A stretch of DNA of 64,000 bases, from contig OZ241986.1 of NCBI GenBank assembly GCA_965204375.1, forward strand, positions 192,001-256,000. Reading direction: 5' to 3'. Every line of letters starts with the position of its first letter. Position 1 is the first letter of the stretch. The notes below the pieces were generated by a model. That model was given only the letters and a program-made list of their open reading frames with translations, made no database searches and had not been told where the DNA came from. Positions 52,835 through 64,000 of the stretch are shown here, in pieces. A program made the translations under genes and the position numbers. Source of the stretch: Candidatus Latescibacterota bacterium (GTDB taxonomy: Bacteria; Latescibacterota; UBA2968).

Positions 52835-54652
52835 ATGCGCGACGGCATTGCCGTGATTGATTTTGGCGGGCAATATGCCCATTTGATTGCCAATCGGATT
52901 CGCAGGTTGCGGGTTTATTCTGAGATTTTTCCGCCGGATGTTGATCCTGCGGCATTGCAGGGCGTGTCGGGCATGATTTTTTCGGGTGGTCCATCCAGTG
53001 TATATGATCCCGATCCGCCCGCGTTTAATCCTGGATTGCTCGATACTGATTTGCCCGTGCTCGGGCTGTGTTATGGACATCAGTTGTTGTGCATGCATCT
53101 GGGGGGCGAGGTTGTTGCTGGTGAGGTGCGCGAATACGGTTCTGCCAGGTTGAATATTGCATGTGGGTCGGATTTGTTTGCCGGGCTTGGGGATTCCCAG
53201 GTGGTGTGGATGAGTCACGGCGATGTGGTCGCAACGCTGCCCAGGGGTTTTGAAATTTTGGGGGCGACCGAGGATTGTCCTTCGGCAGCGGTTGGCGATG
53301 TTAAACGCCGAATCTACGGCTTGCAATTTCATCCCGAGGTGGCACATACGCCGCGTGGATTGGATATTCTCGATAATTTTTTGACGATATGCGATGCACC
53401 TCGAACCTGGACTATGGGCAATTATGCCGAGGTGGTTATGGAGGAGATGCGGGAGAAGGTGGGGGATCGCAATGTGTTTTTGCTGGTGTCGGGTGGAGTT
53501 GATTCTTCAGTGGCTTTTGTGCTGTTTAACAGGGCGCTGGGCGCAGACCGGGTGTTGGGGTTGCATATTGACAATGGTTTTATGCGAAAGGGCGAGACGG
53601 CTGCGGTGGAGGTTTTTCTGAAAGAAGAGGGGTTTGACAATCTGATTGTCAAGGATGCCAGTGACGATTTTTTGTTGGGTGTGGAGGGTCTGGTTGATCC
53701 AGAAGCAAAGCGCGAGGCGATTGGACACACATTTTTAGAGGTGAAGGACGAGGTGATGGCGCACTTGCATTTGGATGCAGATCAGTGGGTGTTAGGGCAG
53801 GGTACGCTTTATCCCGATACCATAGAGTCGGGAGGGACAGAGCACGCTGCGTTGATTAAGACGCACCACAATCGCATTGATTTGATCGATGAGTTGATTG
53901 CACAGGGCAAGGTTGTCGAACCTCTGGCTCAGTTGTACAAGGATGAGGTGCGCGAGTTGGGAAGCGCGTTGGGGTTGCCCGATCATCTGGTGTGGCGACA
54001 TCCGTTTCCCGGTCCCGGTCTGGCTGTGCGCTGTTTGTGTTCCGATGGCGAGGTGGATGGGGGTGATATTGTAGCGGCAGAACGTGCGGCTTCTGAGATT
54101 GCTTCTGAGGTAGGTTTGCAGTTGCAGGTTTTGCCCGTTAGAAGTGTGGGGGTTCAGGGTGATTTTCGCACGTATTCGCATCCCGCGATTGTTTCGGGTT
54201 TTGATCTGGATACGCCCGACAGCGATTGGCGCGTGCTCGAAGATATGTCAACGCGGATTACCAATAGCGTGCCGGGTGTTAATCGCGTGGTTTGTCTTAT
54301 CGCGCCAGATGTGTTGCCCGGGTTGCGTCCCAAACGCGCATTTTTGACCTATCAGAGGCTCGATGTTTTGCGGGAGGCCGATGCCATTGCCATGCGAATA
54401 CTCGATCGCGCAGGTCTTATGCCCGCTGTATCCCAGATGCCGACTGTTCTGGTGCCGTTGACGACAGATGGACAGGATGAAATTGTGATTTTGCGTCCGA
54501 TTACGACTCCGGATTTTATGACCGCACGATTTGCCGAGTTGCCCCACAATCTGGTGCGCGATATGGCAGACGAGATACTGAATCTACCGGGTGTCGCTGC
54601 CGTGGGTTACGATATCACTCACAAACCGCCAGGGACTGTGGAATGGGAATGA
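52835..54652 (+). CDS. guaA: GMP synthase (glutamine-hydrolysing), long form
   Basis: IDFGGQY, GLCYGHQ, QFHPEV, SGGVDS, IKTHHN, RHPFPGPGLA, KPPGTVEWE. Confidence 0.95.
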   Translation: MRDGIAVIDFGGQYAHLIANRIRRLRVYSEIFPPDVDPAALQGVSGMIFSGGPSSVYDPDPPAFNPGLLDTDLPVLGLCYGHQLLCMHLGGEVVAGEVREYGSARLNIACGSDLFAGLGDSQVVWMSHGDVVATLPRGFEILGATEDCPSAAVGDVKRRIYGLQFHPEVAHTPRGLDILDNFLTICDAPRTWTMGNYAEVVMEEMREKVGDRNVFLLVSGGVDSSVAFVLFNRALGADRVLGLHIDNGFMRKGETAAVEVFLKEEGFDNLIVKDASDDFLLGVEGLVDPEAKREAIGHTFLEVKDEVMAHLHLDADQWVLGQGTLYPDTIESGGTEHAALIKTHHNRIDLIDELIAQGKVVEPLAQLYKDEVRELGSALGLPDHLVWRHPFPGPGLAVRCLCSDGEVDGGDIVAAERAASEIASEVGLQLQVLPVRSVGVQGDFRTYSHPAIVSGFDLDTPDSDWRVLEDMSTRITNSVPGVNRVVCLIAPDVLPGLRPKRAFLTYQRLDVLREADAIAMRILDRAGLMPAVSQMPTVLVPLTTDGQDEIVILRPITTPDFMTARFAELPHNLVRDMADEILNLPGVAAVGYDITHKPPGTVEWE

Positions 54653-54957
54653 AAGGCAAAAGCGGAGAAAATATAGCCTATTACGAGACCATAACGCCTA
54701 TAACGGTCTTGTCCGTGCTGTCAGAAAAAGGCGTTCCCGTTCAATCGCGATGGAGAGCAAAATAAATGGGCAGAACGGGGTTGTGATTTTGCGTCTGATA
54801 GGGTTGTTTTTTTCACTTTTTTGAATTGAAATGGAATAAAATGTACACTTTTTTTGTGAATAGTTAGCAAGTGCGGGTCTGCTAACAAAAATTATATACC
54901 CTTGTTTTTTAGTGTCTTAGAATATTCTGAGGCACTTTTTTTTGTTTTTTTGAAAAT

Positions 54958-55046: not shown

Positions 55047-56300
55047 TTGAAAAATACTACAGTTGCATTTTATAGCCAGCATCTCATTGGCGTTGGGCAC
55101 CACTTTCGCAATCGACAGATTGTCAATGAACTGGTCAAGACCTGCGATGTGTTTTTCATCGATGGCGGGCGACCAATTCCCGAGGCTGATCTCGATAAAC
55201 GGGTGGTGCGTATTCTCCTGCCGCCCCTTCGCTCGGGCGCACAGGGCATTGAGTCTGTTGATACGGAGAGAGATTTGCAGACTGTGATGCACGAGCGTCA
55301 GGTCAGGCTTTCCGAAGCTATGGAACAGATTTGTCCGGATGTGTTTTGTGTTGAATTTTTCCCTTTTTCCAGATGGTCGCTCAAGAGCGAAATCCTCAAT
55401 ACAATAGTCAGGCTCAATGAGGTCAATCCCGACGCGCAGGTGTTGTGTTCTCTGCGCGATATTCCAACGCGGGCAAAAAGCAATGTGTTGCAACCGACTG
55501 CCGCGCTTGTCCAGAGGCGGGATGGGGACGCGATGCGGTTTTATTCGGTGCCTTTTGGCGGGATACATCACGAGTATTTAGCTTTTAATCGGCGGTATTA
55601 CGAGGAGGTCGTGCCCGTGTTGAATCAGTATTTCGATGCGGTATTGGTGCATGGCGATTCTCAACTATCCCGGCTGGAAGATCACTTTCCCTGGACTGCT
55701 GATATCAGTATTCCCGTGGTTTATACGGGGTTTGTTTCTGAGAAACTCGAGAACGCATCTCGGCCCAATAGTGCGCCGAATCGGTATGTGCTGGTCAGTG
55801 CTGGCGGTGGAACTGAGGGGCTTGCGCTTGTTGCGCCATGTATTGAAGCGTGGAAACAATTGGATCAGGGCGATGCGCACGATGGACGCGAGATGGTGAT
55901 TTTTACTGGTGCGTTTATCGATGAAACGCATTTTGACGCTTTGCATGCGTTGTGCGGTGATGGTCCGTTTCGCATTGAGCGTTTTACGTCCAATTTTTTG
56001 GCCTGGATGAAACACGCGGATTTGTCGATTAGCCGGGCGGGCTACAATACGTGTATGAATGTACTTGAGACAGGTGTTCCATCGATTCTGGTGCCGAGTA
56101 TTGCGATGGATGATCAGGAATTTCGCGCGCAGGAACTGATGGGGTTGGGTATTGCAGGGGTGATACACCCCGATCAACTCGGTGCGGAAAAGATAGCAAA
56201 AGCTATTGCCGAAATGCTCGAAAGTTCTGTGCCCAAACACCATCTATCCCTGGACGGTGCCGAGCAAACGCGAAAATTTATAGACAGCGGTGCAAGGTAA
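55047..56300 (+). CDS. GT-B glycosyltransferase (COG4671 / GT28-C-like)
   Basis: YSQHLIGVGH, VEFFPF, SLRDI, VLVHGD, VSAGGG, SISRAGYNT, DQEFRA; TTG start. Confidence 0.85.
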   Translation: MKNTTVAFYSQHLIGVGHHFRNRQIVNELVKTCDVFFIDGGRPIPEADLDKRVVRILLPPLRSGAQGIESVDTERDLQTVMHERQVRLSEAMEQICPDVFCVEFFPFSRWSLKSEILNTIVRLNEVNPDAQVLCSLRDIPTRAKSNVLQPTAALVQRRDGDAMRFYSVPFGGIHHEYLAFNRRYYEEVVPVLNQYFDAVLVHGDSQLSRLEDHFPWTADISIPVVYTGFVSEKLENASRPNSAPNRYVLVSAGGGTEGLALVAPCIEAWKQLDQGDAHDGREMVIFTGAFIDETHFDALHALCGDGPFRIERFTSNFLAWMKHADLSISRAGYNTCMNVLETGVPSILVPSIAMDDQEFRAQELMGLGIAGVIHPDQLGAEKIAKAIAEMLESSVPKHHLSLDGAEQTRKFIDSGAR

Positions 56301-56315
56301 AAAACGAGGTGAAAG

Positions 56316-57719
56316 ATGAAAATTTATGTGTCACATCCGTATCACGACCGCGAGAAAGTGATGGCGTCGAATAGCGGGGCGTCCCTTTCGGGTTTTAACC
56401 ATGTGCAGGCGTTATCGAAGTATTGCGATGTGTATATGCCAGCGTCTGAAGCGGTGGATTATGGTCCGAATTTGCACGGTATTCAACCCGCATTTGAGAC
56501 GATTGATTCATCTCGCCAGTGGTTTGCGCGGCAGGATTTTGATGGTCTGTTGATGTTTGAACCCAGGGCAGATGACCTGGCGTTTTTTCGCCATGTGTGT
56601 CCCGCACCCATTGTGCTTCGGCTGTCGTGTTCTTTTGGACACAATCGGGATTTTGTCGATAAGGTGCTGAATTGTTATTCGCTGTTGCGGCCTTATGATG
56701 CCCTGTCGCCCAAGTCGGTGTATGTCGCTGACGAAGTGGGCAAGTTGGTGTTTGACAGATCGTATTTGCACGCGATTACCAATGGGGTAGATGCCGAGGT
56801 GTTTGTGCCAATGGATAAGTTGCACGCGCGCAAAGAGGTCGCGGATAAGACGGGTGATCAACGTTTCTTAGAGATGCCTGTGGTGGGTTTTTGCGGACGG
56901 TTTGAGCCGGGCAAGGGCGCGTATCCGTTTTTGCGGATGGCCGATTTGAATCCCAATGTGTTGTTTGCTGTGATTGGCAAGCAGTTCGCACCCGTGACGC
57001 ATCCTCCCAATGTGATCTTTTTGGGTGCGCAACCCTATACGCAGATGTCGCTGTATTACAATATGCTCGATGTGTTGTGCGCGCTGTCGGTGTATTCGTA
57101 TGAGTCTTGTCCCTCAACTGTGATAGAGGGCATGGCGTGTGGTCTTCCGGTTGTTGCGACAAATTTTGCGGGCGCGCCAGAGTTGTTGGGCAGTTGTGGG
57201 CGGTTGATTGAGATTGAGCGATTTGAAGATGAGCCATTGAATGTGACGGGGTATATCGCCCCTGAGGTGATTTCAGATGCTGTGCGCGATTTGTTGAATA
57301 GCAAAACGGAGCGTGTAGATATGGGGGAGCGTGCTCGCAAACGCGTGCTCGATTTTTCCTGGGATCATACGGCGCAGCAGCATATGACACTATTTAAAAA
57401 TCTGCGGATCAAACGCGATGCATCCGCCTGCCCGATACCAATAACCGTGAGTTTTACACAGGGTTGTGATGTATCTGGCGTGCCGAAAAGCATGTCTAAG
57501 GGATTTAACTATTTGGGAAGCGTGCAAGGTCCTTTGCCGCGCATTTCGTTTTTTGGGCAAGACCTGCCCCTTCTTGAAGGCTTGGTCCTTCACTTGATGC
57601 AACATTTACATCCAAACGAAGTCGAGGCTGTTCTGATGGGTTTATGCGAGACGCGCGCAATGGCCCACAAAACGCTTCGCAAAATCCGACACTTCAGCGA
57701 TATGCTCACGGCTCCCTGA
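56316..57719 (+). CDS. GT4 family glycosyltransferase with C-terminal extension
   Basis: ITNGVD, FCGRFEPGKG, ESCPSTVIEGMACGLPVVAT, FSWD, plus ~110 extra residues. Confidence 0.85.
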   Translation: MKIYVSHPYHDREKVMASNSGASLSGFNHVQALSKYCDVYMPASEAVDYGPNLHGIQPAFETIDSSRQWFARQDFDGLLMFEPRADDLAFFRHVCPAPIVLRLSCSFGHNRDFVDKVLNCYSLLRPYDALSPKSVYVADEVGKLVFDRSYLHAITNGVDAEVFVPMDKLHARKEVADKTGDQRFLEMPVVGFCGRFEPGKGAYPFLRMADLNPNVLFAVIGKQFAPVTHPPNVIFLGAQPYTQMSLYYNMLDVLCALSVYSYESCPSTVIEGMACGLPVVATNFAGAPELLGSCGRLIEIERFEDEPLNVTGYIAPEVISDAVRDLLNSKTERVDMGERARKRVLDFSWDHTAQQHMTLFKNLRIKRDASACPIPITVSFTQGCDVSGVPKSMSKGFNYLGSVQGPLPRISFFGQDLPLLEGLVLHLMQHLHPNEVEAVLMGLCETRAMAHKTLRKIRHFSDMLTAP

Positions 57720-57774
57720 TTGGTCCTATAGGGATACGGTTTATGTTGAGGTGGTAAAGAAAGGAGGTGGAGAA

Positions 57775-57999
57775 ATGACTGAGCGCATTACATCAAGGCC
57801 AGCACAATTTTTTGTGACCTGTGTTCAGCTTCCCGGTCAAGAAAGCGAACTGGCACATGGTGAGATGGCGAATACTGCAGGAGGATGCATTTTGCCAGGA
57901 GAAGATCCACTTGAGCATCTTGAAGATATTATTGATTATGTCGAAGATGCGGTGGATTATATCGGAGATGCGGTGAGTGAATGGTGGGCTTCTTGGTAG
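57775..57999 (+). CDS. Double-glycine-leader precursor peptide A (74 aa)
   Basis: AAGGAGG RBS; leader ends ELAHGEMANTAGG; acidic 37-aa core. Confidence 0.8.
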   Translation: MTERITSRPAQFFVTCVQLPGQESELAHGEMANTAGGCILPGEDPLEHLEDIIDYVEDAVDYIGDAVSEWWASW

Positions 58000-58098
58000 C
58001 AATCGCACCACGCCCCGTAAGACGCTATTTCTGTTGTTCAGGTACTGGACGAAAATCATTTTTTCTGAATATTACAATTCATTTACCTGGAGGATATC

Positions 58099-58470
58099 AT
58101 GTATAATCGCGTGACTACAGATTCAGACGCCGCTTTTGCCTCTTGCACAACACTGCCTATCTATCAAAAAACGCTTAATGCTGAAGAGATGGCGGATATT
58201 GATGGCCTGGGAAGTGTGACAGATGCTATTGATGCAGCGGTAGATTATGTTTCTGATGTTGTTGATAAAATAGGAGATAGTGTTTCTGATTTTGTTGATT
58301 CGTTGTATTTTTACCCTCAGGATGCTGAGCCCATATATCTGCCTGATCCAACTACTATCCCAGCACCACCTGATACAATGAGGATGGTTACTAATGTAAT
58401 GTATTCCTGCGATGTGACGATCGCGGAGTTAGCTTCTGGTGCGATTTGTCCGTGTATGCCGCCGCCGTAG
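58099..58470 (+). CDS. Precursor peptide B (123 aa), leader homologous to A
   Basis: GGAGG RBS; leader ends TLNAEEMADIDGLG; core shares DYVxDxVDxIGDxVS motif with A. Confidence 0.78.
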   Translation: MYNRVTTDSDAAFASCTTLPIYQKTLNAEEMADIDGLGSVTDAIDAAVDYVSDVVDKIGDSVSDFVDSLYFYPQDAEPIYLPDPTTIPAPPDTMRMVTNVMYSCDVTIAELASGAICPCMPPP

Positions 58471-58662
58471 GTCCGATGTGCATCAACCCGTCATTCCCGC
58501 GCATGCCCCACGGCGTGTGTAGGAGTGACGGTGTTATATGAGGTAGGACTTACGTCACTCAGTACTGGAGAGTAGATAGCTTGCCTGACAGAGATTCTCA
58601 GAGCATTTTAGAAATCAGCATTGTAGTTGAGTTATAGACATGTTGCAGGACGGTTGGAGAAA

Positions 58663-61600
58663 ATGAATCTTTCGCACTTTTTCACCAAAAACTCGGTGCG
58701 TTCACAATCTGTTCACTTTCCCTTTGGAGGTGTTGTTTTTCAACAGGGTCAGGCGGGTGAGGCGTTTTACATTGTGCAGTCTGGACGGTTGCGGGTGATT
58801 AAGGAGGATGCGAATGGCAATTCGACAACTGTGGGCTATTTGTATGCGGGCGATCATTTTGGCGAAGGGGCATTGTTGAGTGGGCAAGGGCATCGGGCAT
58901 CGGTGCGTGTGGTTGAGGATGCGGATGTGTTGCAGGTGCCGAAGGATGAGTTTTTTAAGACTGTGAGAAAAAATTCTGACGTACGAGGTTATCTCGAAGA
59001 ACAGGTCGCCTGTATTGCGTATCGGGATTTTACGCGTTTTTTGAAAGGGGATGTTCCAGGCGAGGTGATGCGGGTGTTGTTCGCGCGGTTGAAGCGCGAG
59101 GTGGTTGAGCAGGGAATGACGGTTGTTGACCGAGGTCAGTTGGGTCATCGGTTTTATTTGATTGGCAGCGGTCAGTTGGAGGCTGTGTCAGAAAATGGGG
59201 ATACGGTGGTTTTAAACGCGGGTGATTATTTTGGTAATGAGAATTTGTCAGGTGATAAAAGAGTGATTCGCAGTCGGCGTGATAGTGTGCTTTTTTATAT
59301 AGATAAAAGCAATTTTAATAAGTTAAAAGCTATGATGCCGGGGTTTGAAGAAAGACTGGAGAGAGGACGTATATCGCGTGGAGAACAGCGATCGAATGAG
59401 TCATTGTTTCGACACGAACGACAAGTGCCCGAACCACCCGTTGACCGGTCTGATGAAAAACTGGCATCCAATATAGCATCCAATGTGGTTAATATCAGAA
59501 TAGACGGTGCAAAACCACAGGTGCCTACATTATTTCGCTTTCCATTTTTGAAGCAACACGATCAATCGGATTGTGGTGCGGCGTGTTTGGGCATGATTTG
59601 TAAGTATTACAATATGCCTATTGGGTTGAACAGGCTGCGCGATATGTCCAATGTGTCGCGGTATGGCACGTCGATGGCGGCATTGGCTGAGGCTGCGGAA
59701 ACCCTGGGTTTTATCACGCGCGGCGTGCGCACGGGATATGAGGCTCTGATAAAAACAGAATTGCCAGCCATTCTCCACTGGGAGGGCAATCATTTTGTGG
59801 TCTTGTATCAGATCAATAAAAAGGAGGTGAAGATAGCAGACCCCGGCGTGGGTATTCGCAAGCTGTCGCGGGCAGAGTTTGAGAAGGGGTGGACAAACAG
59901 GGCACTGTTGTTGGAATACACGGATCAGGTGGCGGAGAATGAACCGTCTCAGTCTTCTTTTAAGCGATTTTTTCCGTTAATCAGGCCCTATACAGGCATT
60001 TTGATTGAGGTATTGCTGGCGTCTCTGGTGCTCAGTTTGTTTGGTCTGGCATCGCCCATTTTTATGCAGACGATTGTCGATCAGGTCTTAGTGCATCACG
60101 ATAAGGATTTGTTGAACTTGATGCTGGTGGGTATGGTCGTGGTTGCGTTGTTCCAGATGGGCACATCAACGTTGCGCGTCTATTTAATCGGGTATATGAG
60201 TGCGCGGTTGAGCATTGCGATGTTGTCGCGTTTTTATCGGCATTTGCTGGCGCTGTCCATGCAGTTTTTTGCTCTCAGGCGCACGGGCGATTTGACCACG
60301 CGATTTAAAGAGAATGCAACGATTCGGCGATTGTTGACAGGTACGACGGTTTCTGCAGTTCTGGATTTTATCATGCTTTTTGTCTATCTGGGCTTGATGT
60401 TTTATTACAACACTGAACTGACGCTGGTCATGCTGATTTTTGTGCCGCTCCCTGTAGGGCTTACGCTGATTTACACGCCCATTTTGAAGGCTTTCAGCCA
60501 GCGCGCTTTTTTGGCGCGTGCCGAACAATCATCGGTTTTAATCGATTCGCTTCATGGCATTGATGTGGTCAAAGCCTCGGCGGTTGAGCGCGCGACGCGG
60601 TGGCATTGGGAAGGTAAGTTTACAAAGGAAATTCAGATTGGCTTTCAACGGTTAAAAATGCAGATGTTGTTTGGAGGGATAGGAAGTGTGATCAATTTGT
60701 TGAGCAGTACGGTGATTTTGTGGTATGGCGCCTCATTGGTGATTGAAGGGAACCTGTCGGTTGGACAGTTGATGGCGTTTAATGCGCTGATTGGCAATGT
60801 GATGGGCCCCATTATGGGCTTGATTGGGATATGGCCGCAGGTGCAAGAAGCGCGTATTGCTCTGGATCGGTTAAATGATGTGTATGATACGCAGATGGAG
60901 GATGCGCGACAACAGGGTCAGGGTTTGGTCTTAAAGCCTTTGGAAGGGCGTGTGGTTTTTGAGCGGGTGTTTTTCAGATACGGTATCGGTTCTGATGAAC
61001 CTTATGTGTTGAATAATATAGACTTGACACTTGAACCGGGTCAAAAAGTTGCAATTGTGGGACGCAGCGGCGCGGGTAAGACGACGTTGGTGAAACTGGT
61101 GCCTCGTTTATTTGATCCGTCAGAAGGTCGCGTGACGCTCGATGGGATGGATGTGCAGGATCTGGACCCTCATTGGTTGCGGCGACAGGTGGGTATGGTG
61201 ATGCAGGAACCGTTTTTGTTTTCTGGCACGATTGCAGAAAATATCGCCATTGGTCAGACAGACGCGGACATGGACCGCATTTTGGAAGTGGCAAAGCTAT
61301 CGTGTGTACACGATTTCGTAAGCGATATGCCTTTGGGGTATGAGACAAAGGTGGGCGAGCGGGGTGTGGGATTATCGGGTGGACAACGACAGCGGATCGC
61401 GATTGCACGGGCGCTGTATTGCGATCCCAAGATTTTGATTTTTGATGAGGCGACCAATGCCTTAGATACGGATTCAGAACAGGCGATTCAGGCGAATTTA
61501 GATCTGTTTTTGGATGATCGCACGGCGTTGATTATTGCGCATCGGTTGAGTACTGTGCGCGATGCGGATGCAATTGTGGTCCTGGACAAGGGGCACATTG

Positions 61601-61683
61601 TGGAGATGGGCACACACGATGAGTTGATGGTGCAACAAGGTTTGTACTATCACATGTGTAGTCAACAGTTGCAAGTAGTATGA
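58663..61683 (+). CDS. Peptidase-containing ABC transporter (2x cNMP-binding + C39 peptidase + TMD + NBD)
   Basis: cNMP motifs GEAFYIVQSG..GDHFGE..RASVR and FYLIGSG..GDYFG; C39 QHDQSDCGAAC, HWEGNHFVV, IADP; GRSGAGKT, LSGGQRQR, IFDEAT. Confidence 0.95.
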   Translation: MNLSHFFTKNSVRSQSVHFPFGGVVFQQGQAGEAFYIVQSGRLRVIKEDANGNSTTVGYLYAGDHFGEGALLSGQGHRASVRVVEDADVLQVPKDEFFKTVRKNSDVRGYLEEQVACIAYRDFTRFLKGDVPGEVMRVLFARLKREVVEQGMTVVDRGQLGHRFYLIGSGQLEAVSENGDTVVLNAGDYFGNENLSGDKRVIRSRRDSVLFYIDKSNFNKLKAMMPGFEERLERGRISRGEQRSNESLFRHERQVPEPPVDRSDEKLASNIASNVVNIRIDGAKPQVPTLFRFPFLKQHDQSDCGAACLGMICKYYNMPIGLNRLRDMSNVSRYGTSMAALAEAAETLGFITRGVRTGYEALIKTELPAILHWEGNHFVVLYQINKKEVKIADPGVGIRKLSRAEFEKGWTNRALLLEYTDQVAENEPSQSSFKRFFPLIRPYTGILIEVLLASLVLSLFGLASPIFMQTIVDQVLVHHDKDLLNLMLVGMVVVALFQMGTSTLRVYLIGYMSARLSIAMLSRFYRHLLALSMQFFALRRTGDLTTRFKENATIRRLLTGTTVSAVLDFIMLFVYLGLMFYYNTELTLVMLIFVPLPVGLTLIYTPILKAFSQRAFLARAEQSSVLIDSLHGIDVVKASAVERATRWHWEGKFTKEIQIGFQRLKMQMLFGGIGSVINLLSSTVILWYGASLVIEGNLSVGQLMAFNALIGNVMGPIMGLIGIWPQVQEARIALDRLNDVYDTQMEDARQQGQGLVLKPLEGRVVFERVFFRYGIGSDEPYVLNNIDLTLEPGQKVAIVGRSGAGKTTLVKLVPRLFDPSEGRVTLDGMDVQDLDPHWLRRQVGMVMQEPFLFSGTIAENIAIGQTDADMDRILEVAKLSCVHDFVSDMPLGYETKVGERGVGLSGGQRQRIAIARALYCDPKILIFDEATNALDTDSEQAIQANLDLFLDDRTALIIAHRLSTVRDADAIVVLDKGHIVEMGTHDELMVQQGLYYHMCSQQLQVV

Positions 61684-61753
61684 GGGGCTGGAGACTGAGG
61701 GCTGGGGACTGGTGAGCAGGTGGTCGTCTCACGTTTTACTTCTTACGTCTTAC
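61683..61753 (+). repeat. Composite heptamer repeats between ABC transporter and HlyD genes
   Basis: ggggct ggagact gagggct ggggact ... tctcacg ttttact tcttacg tcttacc. Confidence 0.65.
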
Positions 61754-61771
61754 CGCTTTTAAGGAGCCTAA

Positions 61772-63154
61772 ATGGCAGAACGGCTTTTGGAGACATCGCC
61801 CGAGACAATGTCTCCCGGTATAATCCAGGGACAAGATGACGCGGCAGAAGAGGTGCATGCGTTTATGGGGTCTTTGCGGCCCTTTTGGGGGCGTGCATTG
61901 CTCTATATTGTCCTGCTGTTTGTGATTGTTGCCATTATCTGGGCGTGGTGGAGTAAGGTAGATGTGGTGGCATCAGCACCTTTTCGATTGGTGCCTTTGG
62001 GACAGGTGAAGACGATGCAGGCGCAGCGAGGTGGTGAAATTGAGTTGATTGGTGTTAAAGAAGGGGATCATGTCGAGAAAGGTGAGGTGTTGTTTAAGCT
62101 GAAATCGTGGGAGACGTGGGGAGAGTTGCGGGAATGGGAACAGGCAAAGATGGCTTTTCAAAAGGCGCAGTACGATCTCAAGGCGGTGTTGCCACAAAGA
62201 ACGAGATTAAATCGAGAGACGATAGGATCATTGGAACAACGTCTTTCTGTTTTGCAGCGGTTTATGGAGGCACATCAGAATGCGCTGGAAGATTATCAAA
62301 GCGATGTGGGCGGTGTTGAGGGATCGAAAACCAAAATATCTGACGCGGGGTTGCAAGCGCAGATCGGTTTTCGACAGGCTGAGATTGATCTTATGAAACA
62401 GGAATTTTTGCAGCAAAAAACGCTGTTTGAGCGCGCATTGATCAGCCGGGCGGATATGAATCGCGCGCGTGTGCAGTATTTGAGTGCATTGTCCGCGCTT
62501 CCGGGACGCATGTCGGAGATATACAAGAATGAAATGGCTGTGCAGGATCTCAAGCGTCAAATCACAGAAGCGCGGATTGCACACGAGCGCGAGGCTTCGC
62601 AGATGCGATACGCTTATGAAATCGCACAATTGCGATTGGAGCAGGCGCGCAAACGCATTGATCGCACCCTCGAAGCCGAGTCGGATTTGATTCTGGCGCC
62701 TGAATCAGGGATTGTCACACAGGTGATGGTGAATGCAGTTGGACAGGTGATCAGTAAGGGGCAACCTTTGGTTGCACTGGCACCGGCCTCAGCGCCGGTG
62801 GTTGCAGAAGTGATGGTGTTGAATAAAGATGTGGGCTTGCTCAAACCCGGGCAGTTGGTTAAGCTGAAATACGATGCGTATGCCTTTCAGGATTTTGGTA
62901 TCAAACGCGGATGGCTTACATCCATCTCGCCCGATGCGGTGATCAATGAAAGTATTGGACCGATATTTAAGTGCGTTGTCGAATTAGAAGAAAATACGAT
63001 GCGCGTGAAAGGATATGACAAGCCTCTGATGTTTGGTATGAAGGGCACGGCTGAGATGATGACAGATCGCCAATCGGTCTTGCTGATGTTGCTGAGTCCT
63101 TTGCGACAGCTTTACGAGTCGGCAAGGTACGATGTTCAGGAGGGCGCATTGTGA
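61772..63154 (+). CDS. HlyD family type I secretion membrane-fusion protein
   Basis: N-terminal TM, VKEGDHVEKGEVL, coiled coil, APESGIV, DVGLLKPGQ.VKLKYDAY, GMKGTAE. Confidence 0.93.
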   Translation: MAERLLETSPETMSPGIIQGQDDAAEEVHAFMGSLRPFWGRALLYIVLLFVIVAIIWAWWSKVDVVASAPFRLVPLGQVKTMQAQRGGEIELIGVKEGDHVEKGEVLFKLKSWETWGELREWEQAKMAFQKAQYDLKAVLPQRTRLNRETIGSLEQRLSVLQRFMEAHQNALEDYQSDVGGVEGSKTKISDAGLQAQIGFRQAEIDLMKQEFLQQKTLFERALISRADMNRARVQYLSALSALPGRMSEIYKNEMAVQDLKRQITEARIAHEREASQMRYAYEIAQLRLEQARKRIDRTLEAESDLILAPESGIVTQVMVNAVGQVISKGQPLVALAPASAPVVAEVMVLNKDVGLLKPGQLVKLKYDAYAFQDFGIKRGWLTSISPDAVINESIGPIFKCVVELEENTMRVKGYDKPLMFGMKGTAEMMTDRQSVLLMLLSPLRQLYESARYDVQEGAL

Positions 63155-63924
63155 TGTCAGAGGATGCTATACTGGTTCAGGTCAATGATGTCGAGGTGTC
63201 GTTGCGCCAGGTCGTGCGACAATTGGGTGTTGCTGATAATCTGCATTTTTTTAATGGGTTTGCGTGCGGGGAATTGATACGGCAACTCGCCCGGCGCGAG
63301 GGTGTTTGTGCAGCGCGTGAAGATATTCAGCGGAAGGTAGATGAATGGCGGTATCAACATCGCCTGGAGCGGGTGGAAGATACAGAGGCCTATCTCGCAA
63401 AGCGAGGTATTACGCTTCAGGATGTGACAGAAGATGCCGAGGTGAGACAACTGGAGTATTTGCTGTCTGAGAAGATTGCCAAAGGACAGGTCGAATCCTA
63501 TTTCGCTCAACACACACTGGCGTTTGATGAGGCGGAGATTTGCTGGATTTTTCACACGGATAAGGGTGTGATTGACGAGATTGATTTGCAGATTCGAGAC
63601 GATGGTGCAGACTTTTACGCGATGGCGCGTCGATTTTCTCAAGATGCACGCACGCGATCAGGGAGTGGCTTTTTGGGCCGCGTGCGGCGCAAGCAGTTGC
63701 CAAAGGGGATTGCTGCGCGCGTTTTTGCCGTGTCACCAGGTGAAATTTTGGGTCCGGAAAAAGTATCGAAAGGCTTTGCGCTGTACCTGGTGCAAGAACG
63801 CTACCCGGCAACACTAAATGAACGAACAAAAAAGGAGATCCGCAAGCACCTGTTTAATCAGTGGTTGCAACGCGAAGTACAGAAGGCAGATATACGGTAT
63901 CCGATTTGGCAGGCGGAAAGTTAA
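63151..63924 (+). CDS. Parvulin/PpiC-like peptidyl-prolyl isomerase (peptide-secretion associated)
   Basis: SurA-like helical N-region, DFYAMARRFSQD..SGFLG, GEILGP; overlaps HlyD stop. Confidence 0.8.
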   Translation: MMSEDAILVQVNDVEVSLRQVVRQLGVADNLHFFNGFACGELIRQLARREGVCAAREDIQRKVDEWRYQHRLERVEDTEAYLAKRGITLQDVTEDAEVRQLEYLLSEKIAKGQVESYFAQHTLAFDEAEICWIFHTDKGVIDEIDLQIRDDGADFYAMARRFSQDARTRSGSGFLGRVRRKQLPKGIAARVFAVSPGEILGPEKVSKGFALYLVQERYPATLNERTKKEIRKHLFNQWLQREVQKADIRYPIWQAES

Positions 63925-64000
63925 AAAATCAAAAGGACAGGTCCGCACTAAGGCATCACAGCTTCTTTGCCCTGATATTCTCGGATCCAGCCTTTTAATG

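Follow-up and report, generated by a model that had tools for sequence, protein, structure and literature searches.

Known glycocins, the peptides of the sublancin, glycocin F, thurandacin, pallidocin and thermoglycocin type, come from Firmicutes, and their cores are helix-loop-helix structures with nested disulfides, accompanied in the cluster by thiol-disulfide oxidoreductase genes. Excerpts of PMC12457901 and PMC11912497 give glycosylation of Ser, Thr or Cys as their defining modification; the PMC11912497 excerpts describe characterised glycocin transferases as predicted enzymes of glycosyltransferase (GT) family 2 (GT2), and characterised transferases of peptides made by the ribosome and modified after translation (RiPPs) as few and mostly GT2. 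Here we analyze a cluster of different composition from a Latescibacterota genome. It lies at positions 55047-63924 of a 64,000-nucleotide stretch of contig OZ241986.1 (the window, positions 192001-256000 of a 6.34 Mb genome in one contig) and consists of seven plus-strand open reading frames (ORFs) with little space between them, which encode a GT28-like glycosyltransferase (GT1), a GT4-family glycosyltransferase (GT4), two peptide precursors (preA and preB), a peptidase-containing ATP-binding cassette (ABC) transporter (PCAT), a HlyD-family adaptor and a parvulin-like peptidyl-prolyl isomerase (PPIase). All seven co-oriented genes were found in the order and at the positions given in a preliminary description of this stretch, every checked detail of which was right.

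Like glycocin clusters, the locus combines a double-glycine-type leader, dedicated glycosyltransferases and a C39 PCAT for leader removal and export; the preA leader ends in Gly-Gly, and the PCAT has an intact C39 domain. Glycocin clusters use a GT2 enzyme (GT-A fold, SunS/GccA type), whereas the window cluster encodes a PF04101 and a PF00534 protein, both GT-B, with no match to PF00535, and related clusters described below carry two or three GT domains each. A disulfide-stapled core of the glycocin kind is absent: preA carries a single Cys in its core, preB carries three, and no oxidoreductase was found among the seven genes. The window cores are, in contrast to those of glycocins, anionic; the cluster also encodes cyclic nucleotide monophosphate (cNMP)-binding domains and a PPIase, its exporter comes with a HlyD-type periplasmic adaptor, and its host is an uncultured member of the Latescibacterota. 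The expectation that this system would be unlike known glycocins is supported by the lack of a GT2 enzyme, the anionic cores and the lack of disulfide-forming genes.

The export genes correspond, as had been proposed, to the C39 ABC/HlyD/rotamase trio of cyanobacterial bacteriocin clusters of groups I, II and VI (Wang et al. 2011, PMC3140520). The C39 ABC transporter described in excerpts of that paper is of the long type, with an extra CAP_ED nucleotide-binding domain at its N terminus, and is accompanied by HlyD, a SurA-like rotamase and arrays of double-glycine precursors, many of them negatively charged; the term "glycosyl" does not occur in the main text of the paper. The window cluster likewise has an N-terminal cNMP domain on its C39 ABC transporter and both HlyD and a rotamase-domain protein; unlike the cyanobacterial clusters, its precursors match no NHLP or Nif11 model, its exporter has two cNMP-binding stretches, and it belongs to another phylum. 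Class IIb siderophore microcins such as MccE492 are a further point of comparison: they are Gram-negative double-glycine peptides exported by a PCAT with HlyD, with a GT-B enzyme encoded in the cluster and a critical Ser, all of which are features seen here. In those microcins, the transferase glucosylates enterobactin, which esterase/acyltransferase-type enzymes join to the Ser-rich C-terminal tail. No such partner enzyme is present among the seven products, all of which are assigned elsewhere or are precursors, and the window cores end in ...WWASW and ...CMPPP instead of a Ser-rich tail, with Ser placed internally before Glu or Asp (S-E/D motif). No description of this cluster type was found in the full-text literature, which we searched at the level of main texts; a paper on sponge Latescibacterota (PMC12993501) gives, in the excerpts available, only generic antiSMASH classes.

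We consider it probable, from comparison of related loci, that the precursors are substrates of the two adjacent GT-B enzymes and that the sugar is most likely placed on the serine of the S-E/D motif. The comparison covers 53 stretches, namely the window and 52 further stretches fetched from relatives (L numbers). In 31 of them, the window included, GTs adjoin precursors; 30 have both GTs and one (L074) has only a GT1 fusion. Most of these 31 also carry the PCAT, HlyD and PPIase genes in the same order. Another 17 stretches have precursors and exporter with no GT, and five have orphan precursors. The gene arrangement is far beyond chance, because the same order recurs in 30 other fetched loci. 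The operon is real, complete and strongly conserved.

At the level of genomes, the cluster recurs in all 20 sister-species genomes, with up to three copies in a genome, and in two further genera. GT1 orthologues with 73-94% identity are present in all 20 genomes of the genus (g1), often in several copies; outside it, genera g5 and g8 each contribute a single genome with an orthologue. The C-terminal domain of GT4, discussed below, occurs in 25 of 53 genomes of the order (20/20 in g1 plus the genome of the window, 1/1 in g5, 2/2 in g8 and, as a remnant, 1/1 in g10), and all 24 genomes in which it is intact also hold precursors. A profile of 31 precursor sequences matched in 41 of the 168 genomes of the phylum, all within two families of one order (f1, 22/30; f2, 18/22), with no match in the 115 genomes of the other twelve families. 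At least seven sister species (L020, L064, L066, L070, L076, L077 and L102) have kept the locus beside guaA, with its two precursors, intact.

A natural loss of the enzymes provides the main evidence on their substrate. All 15 genomes of genus g6 (92-100% complete) contain one to five precursors of the same leader family, and their PCAT, HlyD and PPIase are 61-81% identical to those of the window. No GT1 orthologue was found in the 13 g6 genomes searched, only MurG-like matches of about 29% identity, and the GT4 C-terminal domain is present in none of the 15. In a genome of genus g10 (G080), only the last 90 residues of GT4 are left, beside an IS110 transposase. A PCAT tree (FastTree, rooted at the midpoint only) has GT-bearing clusters on both sides of the root and places the GT-less g6 clade as sister to the main GT-bearing clade, from which we infer that the GTs were lost in g6; the GT label changes twice on this tree, most simply through two losses.

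The precursors of the two kinds of loci (66 from GT loci and 50 from GT-less loci, with eight orphans) differ at specific positions. The core motif [VIALMFTW]-S-[ED] is present in 56/66 precursors beside GTs, in 5/50 without them and in all eight orphans; in 2000 composition-preserving shuffles, its count averaged 16.6 for the GT loci (maximum 29) and 4.6 for the GT-less loci. Aligned families give the same contrast column by column. In family A, Ser occupies the aligned column in 13/13 members from GT loci (D-x-V-S-E-W-W) and in 0/18 from GT-less loci (E-A-I-[VF..]-E-Y-F). In family A3, it is found in 6/6 (D-Y-I-S-E-E-F-G-I-D-L-P) versus 0/7, where Ala takes its place (L-V-A-E-I-F-G-V-T-L-P), and in the Cys-rich (poly-Cys) family in 3/3 ([IV]-S-E) versus 0/6, again with Ala ([VT]-A-E). 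Family C reads D-R-x-S-E beside GTs and R-x-[KMRN]-D without them. The leader changes as well: Arg at profile position 8 is invariant in GT loci (66/66) and kept in 23/50 GT-less precursors, while the leader Cys, L-P, E-M-A and G-G positions are kept in both groups alike. Cys at core position +1, present in 22/66 precursors from GT loci and in one of the eight orphans, is absent from all 50 GT-less ones. We interpret the loss of Ser, Cys and Arg as relaxed constraint on positions that would have served the GTs, with Ser (and perhaps Cys) as acceptor and Arg-x-Thr as docking element. Because these positions go where the GTs are missing, the contrast supports, but does not prove, leader-guided O-glycosylation. 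Together with the 24 genomes that hold both the intact domain and precursors, it also upholds the claim that the GTs are tied to the precursors.

Several observations weigh against this interpretation. The Ser motif was defined after inspection of the data. Clusters with and without GTs make up only a few clades, with the two label changes noted above, so the counts overstate independence: behind them stand one major loss and changes that occurred in parallel in four peptide families paralogous to each other. Cores from GT-less loci moreover tend to be shorter and carry less negative charge (median net charge -2 versus -8 in GT loci), and since charge and length differ too, loss of Ser could belong to a wider shift in peptide type. 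The motif is missing from 10 of the 66 GT-locus cores, including both g8 precursors, the five GT-less cores that carry it go the other way, and in the Gly-rich WDW family only 1/8 GT-locus members has Ser at the aligned column. Finally, the N-terminal leader motif is partly kept in GT-less lineages and may serve the exporter or the PPIase instead.

The Cys contrast raises a different account of what the enzymes modify: the sugar could be S-linked to the Cys that opens the core, in the manner of glycocins, or be attached to a leader Thr or Ser, or could be a transient intracellular mask that protects the producer until export, in place of an immunity gene. Besides the confinement of the core +1 Cys to GT loci, this account draws on the leader Thr at profile position 10, found in 43/66 leaders from GT loci and outside the four commonest states of that position in GT-less leaders (gap, Ala, Leu and Gln). 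The window locus has no CPBP gene, whereas all GT-less loci examined have two, and GT1 is weakly similar to self-immunity transferases that inactivate macrolides (NF000362 OleI, 9.9e-5). However, the +1 Cys is missing from 44 of the 66 GT-locus cores, including the preB type, whereas 56 of the 66 have the Ser motif. A mask is further opposed by the CPBP genes of the GT-bearing loci L019, L061, L079 and L081, which show that GTs and immunity genes are not alternatives, and by the lack of any glycosidase gene for unmasking in the cluster. We regard this account as quite improbable, and glycosylation of the S-E/D serine as the preferred reading. The mid-leader Cys (preA Cys16, window positions 57820-57822) is a separate matter: 51/66 precursors from GT loci and 34/50 from GT-less loci have it, and its role does not depend on the GTs.

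The precursors themselves are real genes, given that 124 intact ORFs in the 53 stretches match the leader profile and that the ribosome-binding site (RBS) and start context are conserved in the window. The prediction of two homologous double-glycine precursors is upheld; the preB leader ends in Gly-Leu. Across the loci, leaders are about 37-44 residues long and share N-R-[VIM]-T-[ST] ... F-x-x-C-x-x-L-P ... L-x-x-x-E-M-A-x-x-x-G-G. In preA, the N-terminal motif reads R-I-T-S and is followed by the conserved Cys16, with L-12, E-8, M-7, G-2 and G-1 in register as read from the sequence. Leaders of the preB type, with orthologues in L020, L066, L070, L076 and L102, end in G-L in the canonical register (L-12, E-8, M-7, I-4 and G-2). 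Cleavage after G-L is plausible by analogy, because a PCAT cutting after a Gly-Lys motif is reported in excerpts of PMC12457901. Clusters contain one to six precursors, and their mostly acidic cores are hypervariable, ranging from acidic amphipathic sequences, to which both window cores belong, and Gly/Ala-rich hydrophobic ones to poly-Cys and Pro-rich tails. Two V-S-D motifs are present in the preB core (Ser codons 58252-58254 and 58285-58287). Neither preA nor preB matched a Pfam or NCBIfam family at E≤0.01, the NHLP and Nif11 leader models included, and a profile search with the two precursors recovered only 32 representatives among 1.84 billion proteins. On these searches, preA and preB form a precursor family of their own.

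Both transferases look catalytically intact from their sequences. The C-terminal part of GT1 gives weak profile matches to MurG, a macrolide GT, YjiC and OleD, and its G-x-G-H-H loop is invariant among orthologues. Residues ~129-365 of GT4 match solved GT4 enzymes (GlgM, 8e-12; BshA, MshA and PimB), and E263 and E271 of the E-x7-E motif are invariant in 10 orthologues. Judged from the N-terminal sequences, neither protein has a signal peptide. GT1 stands alone in the window; in most other GT loci it forms half of a protein of ~840-865 residues with an extra GT4 domain (L061, L068, L019 and L071), which is N-terminal in L061 and C-terminal in L068, so that clusters bearing the fusion have three GT domains where the window locus has two. 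Open frames of 845-880 residues had been considered as fusions of GT1 with GT4; this was rejected, the partner of GT1 being the extra GT4 domain instead. No sugar-nucleotide genes adjoin the GTs (none among 16 flanking products of eight sister loci), so the neighbourhood gives no hint of the sugar.

Paralogues of GT1 introduce the possibility that the GTs ignore the peptides and make or decorate something else, such as a glycolipid, a glycan of the envelope or, as in siderophore microcins, a small molecule to which the peptide is joined afterwards; they would be kept beside the exporter for co-regulation or co-export. In the genome of the window, a second GT1-like copy forms the C-terminal half of an 864-residue GT4-GT28 fusion (L018:3956-6550; G000:C1:4440956-4443550), its neighbours being ABC-2 membrane/Golvesin_C genes and additional GT4 genes; the setting is of the polysaccharide type, and no precursors were detected in it. 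Since GT1 paralogues (43-45% identity) occur in this cluster, the GT1 fold is not peptide-specific, which tells against our interpretation. Paralogues of ~43-45% identity in sister species (L024:4007-13760 and L025:1791-11405) adjoin HlyD/ABC/MacB exporters with no recognisable relatives of the precursors. One of these two clusters encodes a REC-AraC regulator, a GT, HlyD, a 123-residue ORF, a protein with TPR and Peptidase_C39_2 domains, an ABC transporter and an S8-DUF1611 protein; the other encodes an S8-DUF1611 protein, a PP-binding carrier, a GT, MauE, Yip1, HlyD and MacB/FtsX with ABC proteins. Both may be further peptide-export systems that use the GT1-type family. Another acceptor would also fit the enterobactin-glucosylating GT-B of class IIb microcins, which does not act on the peptide, and the genus g6 exporter and precursors, which function without GTs. 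Yet if the acceptor lay elsewhere, there would be no reason to expect Ser, Cys and Arg to disappear from specific positions wherever the GTs are missing. Moreover, none of the seven products is an esterase, acyltransferase or siderophore enzyme, the cores lack a Ser-rich tail end, and the extra domain of GT4 is confined to these clusters. We therefore hold an acceptor other than the peptides to be improbable and retain the precursors as the likely substrates.

The C-terminal domain of GT4, about 100 residues long, is conserved in all orthologues aligned. It had no Pfam match at E≤10 in the four orthologues scanned and no sequence match in the PDB. In a search of 5.8 billion proteins, it was found in only 32, all at 57% identity or more. 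A pattern scan derived from the GT4 alignment over 185,579 species genomes gave 35 loci, of which, by title, 33 are from Latescibacterota/Latescibacteria, one is from Poribacteria and one is from a "bacterium". The domain is evidently private to these clusters. Its model (25-sequence alignment, pLDDT 66) begins with strands and continues with three helices; a model of the entire GT4 was of low quality (pLDDT 59) and was kept out of the fold search. With VIA-align over 48,161 chains, four leader-binding RiPP recognition element (RRE) structures ranked within the top 14: TbiB1 with leader (lasso B1 RRE, 5v1u_A; Z 6.3, 62 residues aligned), a lasso B1 protein with leader (6jx3_B, Z 6.2), PqqD (3g2b, Z 5.5) and the CteB RRE (5wgg, Z 5.2), where Z 5-6 is a range that the tool itself calls common. 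Helices of ribosomal protein eL36 outranked them (Z 7.3).

In its predicted architecture, a small extra domain of strands and three helices, GT4 would resemble RRE-dependent tailoring enzymes, the nearest solved look-alikes of the domain including leader-bound lasso B1 proteins, PqqD and CteB. Fusions of RREs with glycosyltransferases have been listed from genome mining, uncharacterised, with PF00535 in excerpts of PMC12710340 and of unspecified type in excerpts of PMC7470986. Unlike the listed GT2 (PF00535) fusions, the window domain sits on a GT4 enzyme, at its C terminus, and lacks a match to PF05402. Other searches weaken the resemblance. Foldseek, run with the domain model against the PDB, had no match at E≤0.001 and listed eL36 helices first; hhalign of the domain alignment against 27 PqqD-like sequences of the phylum returned a probability of 2%; PF05402 did not match the domain in the genome search; and the best score in an ESM Atlas feature search, 0.76, was uninformative. 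The RRE-like identity suggested by the model is thus a weak lead and not a finding.

A mechanism that would accommodate these observations is as follows. In the cytoplasm, GT4 would use its private C-terminal domain to bind the motif at the N terminus of the leader (the invariant Arg, R-x-T-S) and transfer a first sugar onto the core Ser of the hydrophobic-Ser-Glu/Asp motif of preA and preB; the core-initial Cys would perhaps be glycosylated as well. A second sugar, or the modification of a second site, would fall to the GT28-like enzyme. The parvulin-like protein would act as chaperone of the precursor, the PCAT would cut after G-G (preA) or G-L (preB), and the anionic glycopeptides would leave through HlyD and an outer-membrane channel, gated by cyclic nucleotide. 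Within this scheme we infer the RRE-like docking, how many sugars are added and of what type, and what the peptides do. The disaccharide suggested earlier is a guess: modification of Ser and of the core-initial Cys as two distinct sites would explain the observations just as well, and a third GT domain is present in many sister loci. Taken as a whole, the system might represent a new RiPP class, in which a GT4 enzyme with a fused, sequence-novel leader-binding domain and its GT28-like partner place O-linked (possibly S-linked) sugars on the S-E/D sequon of hypervariable anionic peptides released by a cNMP-gated PCAT, and whose sequon a sister genus, serving as natural control, erased in all of its peptide families after losing the enzymes; we put this forward tentatively, with slightly less than even confidence.

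If this is correct, bacterial peptides would be glycosylated here by a new enzymatic route, and peptide glycoengineering would gain a new type of enzyme, a GT-B pair guided by the leader to a short acidic sequon. The Latescibacterota, a phylum represented here by uncultured, metagenome-assembled genomes, would contribute a new precursor family, and the widespread cNMP-PCAT/HlyD/PPIase export module would receive a function when coupled to tailoring enzymes. The glycosylation hypothesis is directly testable in E. coli, because the loss lineage points to preA Ser68, Cys38 and Arg4 as residues to mutate and supplies negative-control substrates.

As to what the peptides do, sister clusters offer the clearest indications. 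Genes for CPBP/Rce1-like proteins (PF02517) alternate with precursors in L061, L081, L019, L079 and L058; membrane proteases of this kind form the family of many bacteriocin immunity proteins. Sister clusters also carry DUF3267 proteins, S41 or M16 peptidases and TPR proteins, with REC-AraC or sigma-54 regulators upstream, and some have Gly/Ala-rich, membrane-type cores. Because sister clusters pair precursors with CPBP-type genes, and because the cores are hypervariable and multi-copy, antagonism is favoured: by analogy with the CPBP-bearing clusters, the products are most likely bacteriocin-like rather than signals. The preliminary description had raised a possible signalling or surface role instead of killing, and the CPBP/Rce1-like genes and membrane-type cores make this less likely. 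Such a role, in which the glycopeptides would be anionic secreted signals or metal- or surface-binding peptides of a host-associated community, released under cyclic-nucleotide control, would suit the two cNMP-binding domains of the exporter, the intact guaA locus of the sister species and cores that are strongly anionic (-11 and -12) with no membrane-spanning stretch. The same leader family, however, accompanies Gly/Ala-rich and Cys-rich cores typical of bacteriocins, several loci per genome with hypervariable cores are the usual pattern of antagonism genes, and no receptor or sensor kinase is encoded at the window locus. That locus does lack an immunity-type gene, and purely anionic cores are unusual for killing peptides, both of which count against a bacteriocin-like product; because the extras of the sister clusters are missing and the peptides are purely anionic, we keep a non-killing role as an unlikely but serious alternative.

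The PCAT has its two PF00027 stretches N-terminal to PF03412, PF00664 and PF00005, and its likely true start is ATG 58663, preceded by GGAG. The predicted C39 residues are intact (Cys316 in QSDCG, His389 in GNHFVV and Asp405 in IADPG), and Walker A, signature and Walker B motifs are present. The parvulin-like protein has no evident signal peptide. It matched TIGR04500, "putative peptide maturation system protein", with 88 bits, below the cut-off of 180, residues 5-249 aligning to positions 87-336 of the 340-position profile, as a relative without the N-terminal part. The features of the locus are listed in Table 1.

Table 1. Features of the glycosyltransferase/precursor/exporter locus (window coordinates)
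Feature	Coordinates	Strand	Details
Terminator-like hairpin	54911..54936	+	11-pair stem, then TTTTTTTGTT (T run); upstream cluster boundary
GT1, GT28/MurG-like (COG4671-type) GT-B glycosyltransferase, 417 aa	55047..56300	+	PF04101 Glyco_tran_28_C 9.4e-15
GT4 glycosyltransferase, 467 aa	56316..57719	+	PF00534 1.2e-18
GT4 catalytic part, residues 1-367	56316..57416	+	GT-B fold, retaining type, E-x7-E motif; PF00534 1.2e-18
GT4 C-terminal ~100-residue domain (residues ~368-467) and stop codon	57417..57719	+	Highly conserved; candidate leader-binding (RRE-like) module
preA, 74 aa from likely ATG 57775	57751..57999 (as listed)	+	RBS AAAGGAGGTG upstream of ATG
preA leader, 37 aa	57775..57885	+	Ends ...EMANTAGG (double glycine); leader hidden Markov model (HMM) E 9e-19
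preA core, 37 aa, and stop	57886..57999	+	Net charge -11; Cys first; ends DAVSEWWASW; Ser68 codon 57976-57978
preB, 123 aa	58099..58470	+	Homologous to preA, BLASTP 8e-11
preB leader, 37 aa	58099..58209	+	Ends ...EEMADIDGL (G at -2, L at -1); leader HMM 2.3e-19
preB core, 86 aa, and stop	58210..58470	+	Net charge -12; Pro-rich stretch; C-terminal Cys-bearing tail ...CMPPP
PCAT, 1018 aa	58627..61683	+	Two cNMP_binding (PF00027) stretches, Peptidase_C39 7e-40, ABC_membrane, ABC_tran; TIGR01193 535.8 bits (cut-off 523.85)
HlyD-family periplasmic adaptor	61772..63154	+	TIGR01843 209.9 bits (cut-off 208.65), PF13437
Parvulin-type PPIase-like (rotamase) protein, 257 aa	63151..63924	+	PF00639 4.6e-13; start overlaps HlyD stop by 4 nt
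Convergent PhyH-family dioxygenase gene, 3' end	63948..64000	-	PF05721 2.2e-17; downstream boundary

Upstream of the cluster, guaA (a GMP synthase-like ORF) stops at 54652, 5' of the terminator-like hairpin. Downstream, the convergent gene whose end had been suspected in the last ~50 nt of the window encodes a 283-residue PhyH protein (L005:948-1799, minus strand), the last ~53 nt of the gene lying inside the window, and housekeeping genes (ddl, ispDF and queA) follow beyond it. The cluster is complete within these bounds, as the preliminary description had supposed, since the hairpin after guaA closes it upstream and the convergent PhyH and housekeeping genes do so downstream. Its statements that LanM, YcaO, radical SAM and GT2 enzymes and an obvious immunity gene are lacking also hold: family scans of the seven products found none of the four enzyme types and no CPBP domain. 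Past the boundary (L005:948-2281, from window position 63948 onward), the PhyH gene is followed by a 155-residue multi-pass membrane ORF, and a second PhyH gene lies 6 kb further; nothing ties the PhyH genes or the membrane ORF to the peptides.

Transcription of the cluster has weak support. Contigs of one RNA library (X9) span all 30 bins of the cluster, and this coverage may be DNA carry-over, because DNA contigs of the same sample (X6) likewise span all bins. An RNA library of another study (X20) contains one 201-nt contig within preB (58132-58330); X20 cannot rank the genes by expression, because the run was found using the window stretch itself. Library X24 had no contig matching the cluster.

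Precursor and GT loci evidently turn over quickly. L074 (G009:C2:2139001-2159000) has a GT4'-GT1 fusion, three Ser-motif precursors and an exporter without the GT4 gene that bears the C-terminal domain; its genome (G009) holds an intact copy of that gene elsewhere and, at 2171579-2171883, a copy of the domain broken by stop codons. Insertion sequence genes lie within or beside several clusters (L021:3702-4891, L059:8453-10084 and L018:10473-11721); they comprise an IS3-type pair (by sequence), IS110, and HTH_Tnp_1 with rve. Two genes upstream of the GT fusion in L019, a radical SAM/SPASM protein of 476 residues is encoded (L019:13351-14781, minus strand), which may belong to a neighbouring or extended RiPP cluster. 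In the GT-less genus, L058 encodes a GT-C protein of the TMEM260-like protein O-mannosyltransferase type (PF11028; L058:12664-15003, plus strand), and an ORF in L060 (L060:6139-8334, minus strand) is placed like it; both are 730-780 residues long, divergent and located ~1.2 kb from the precursor array.

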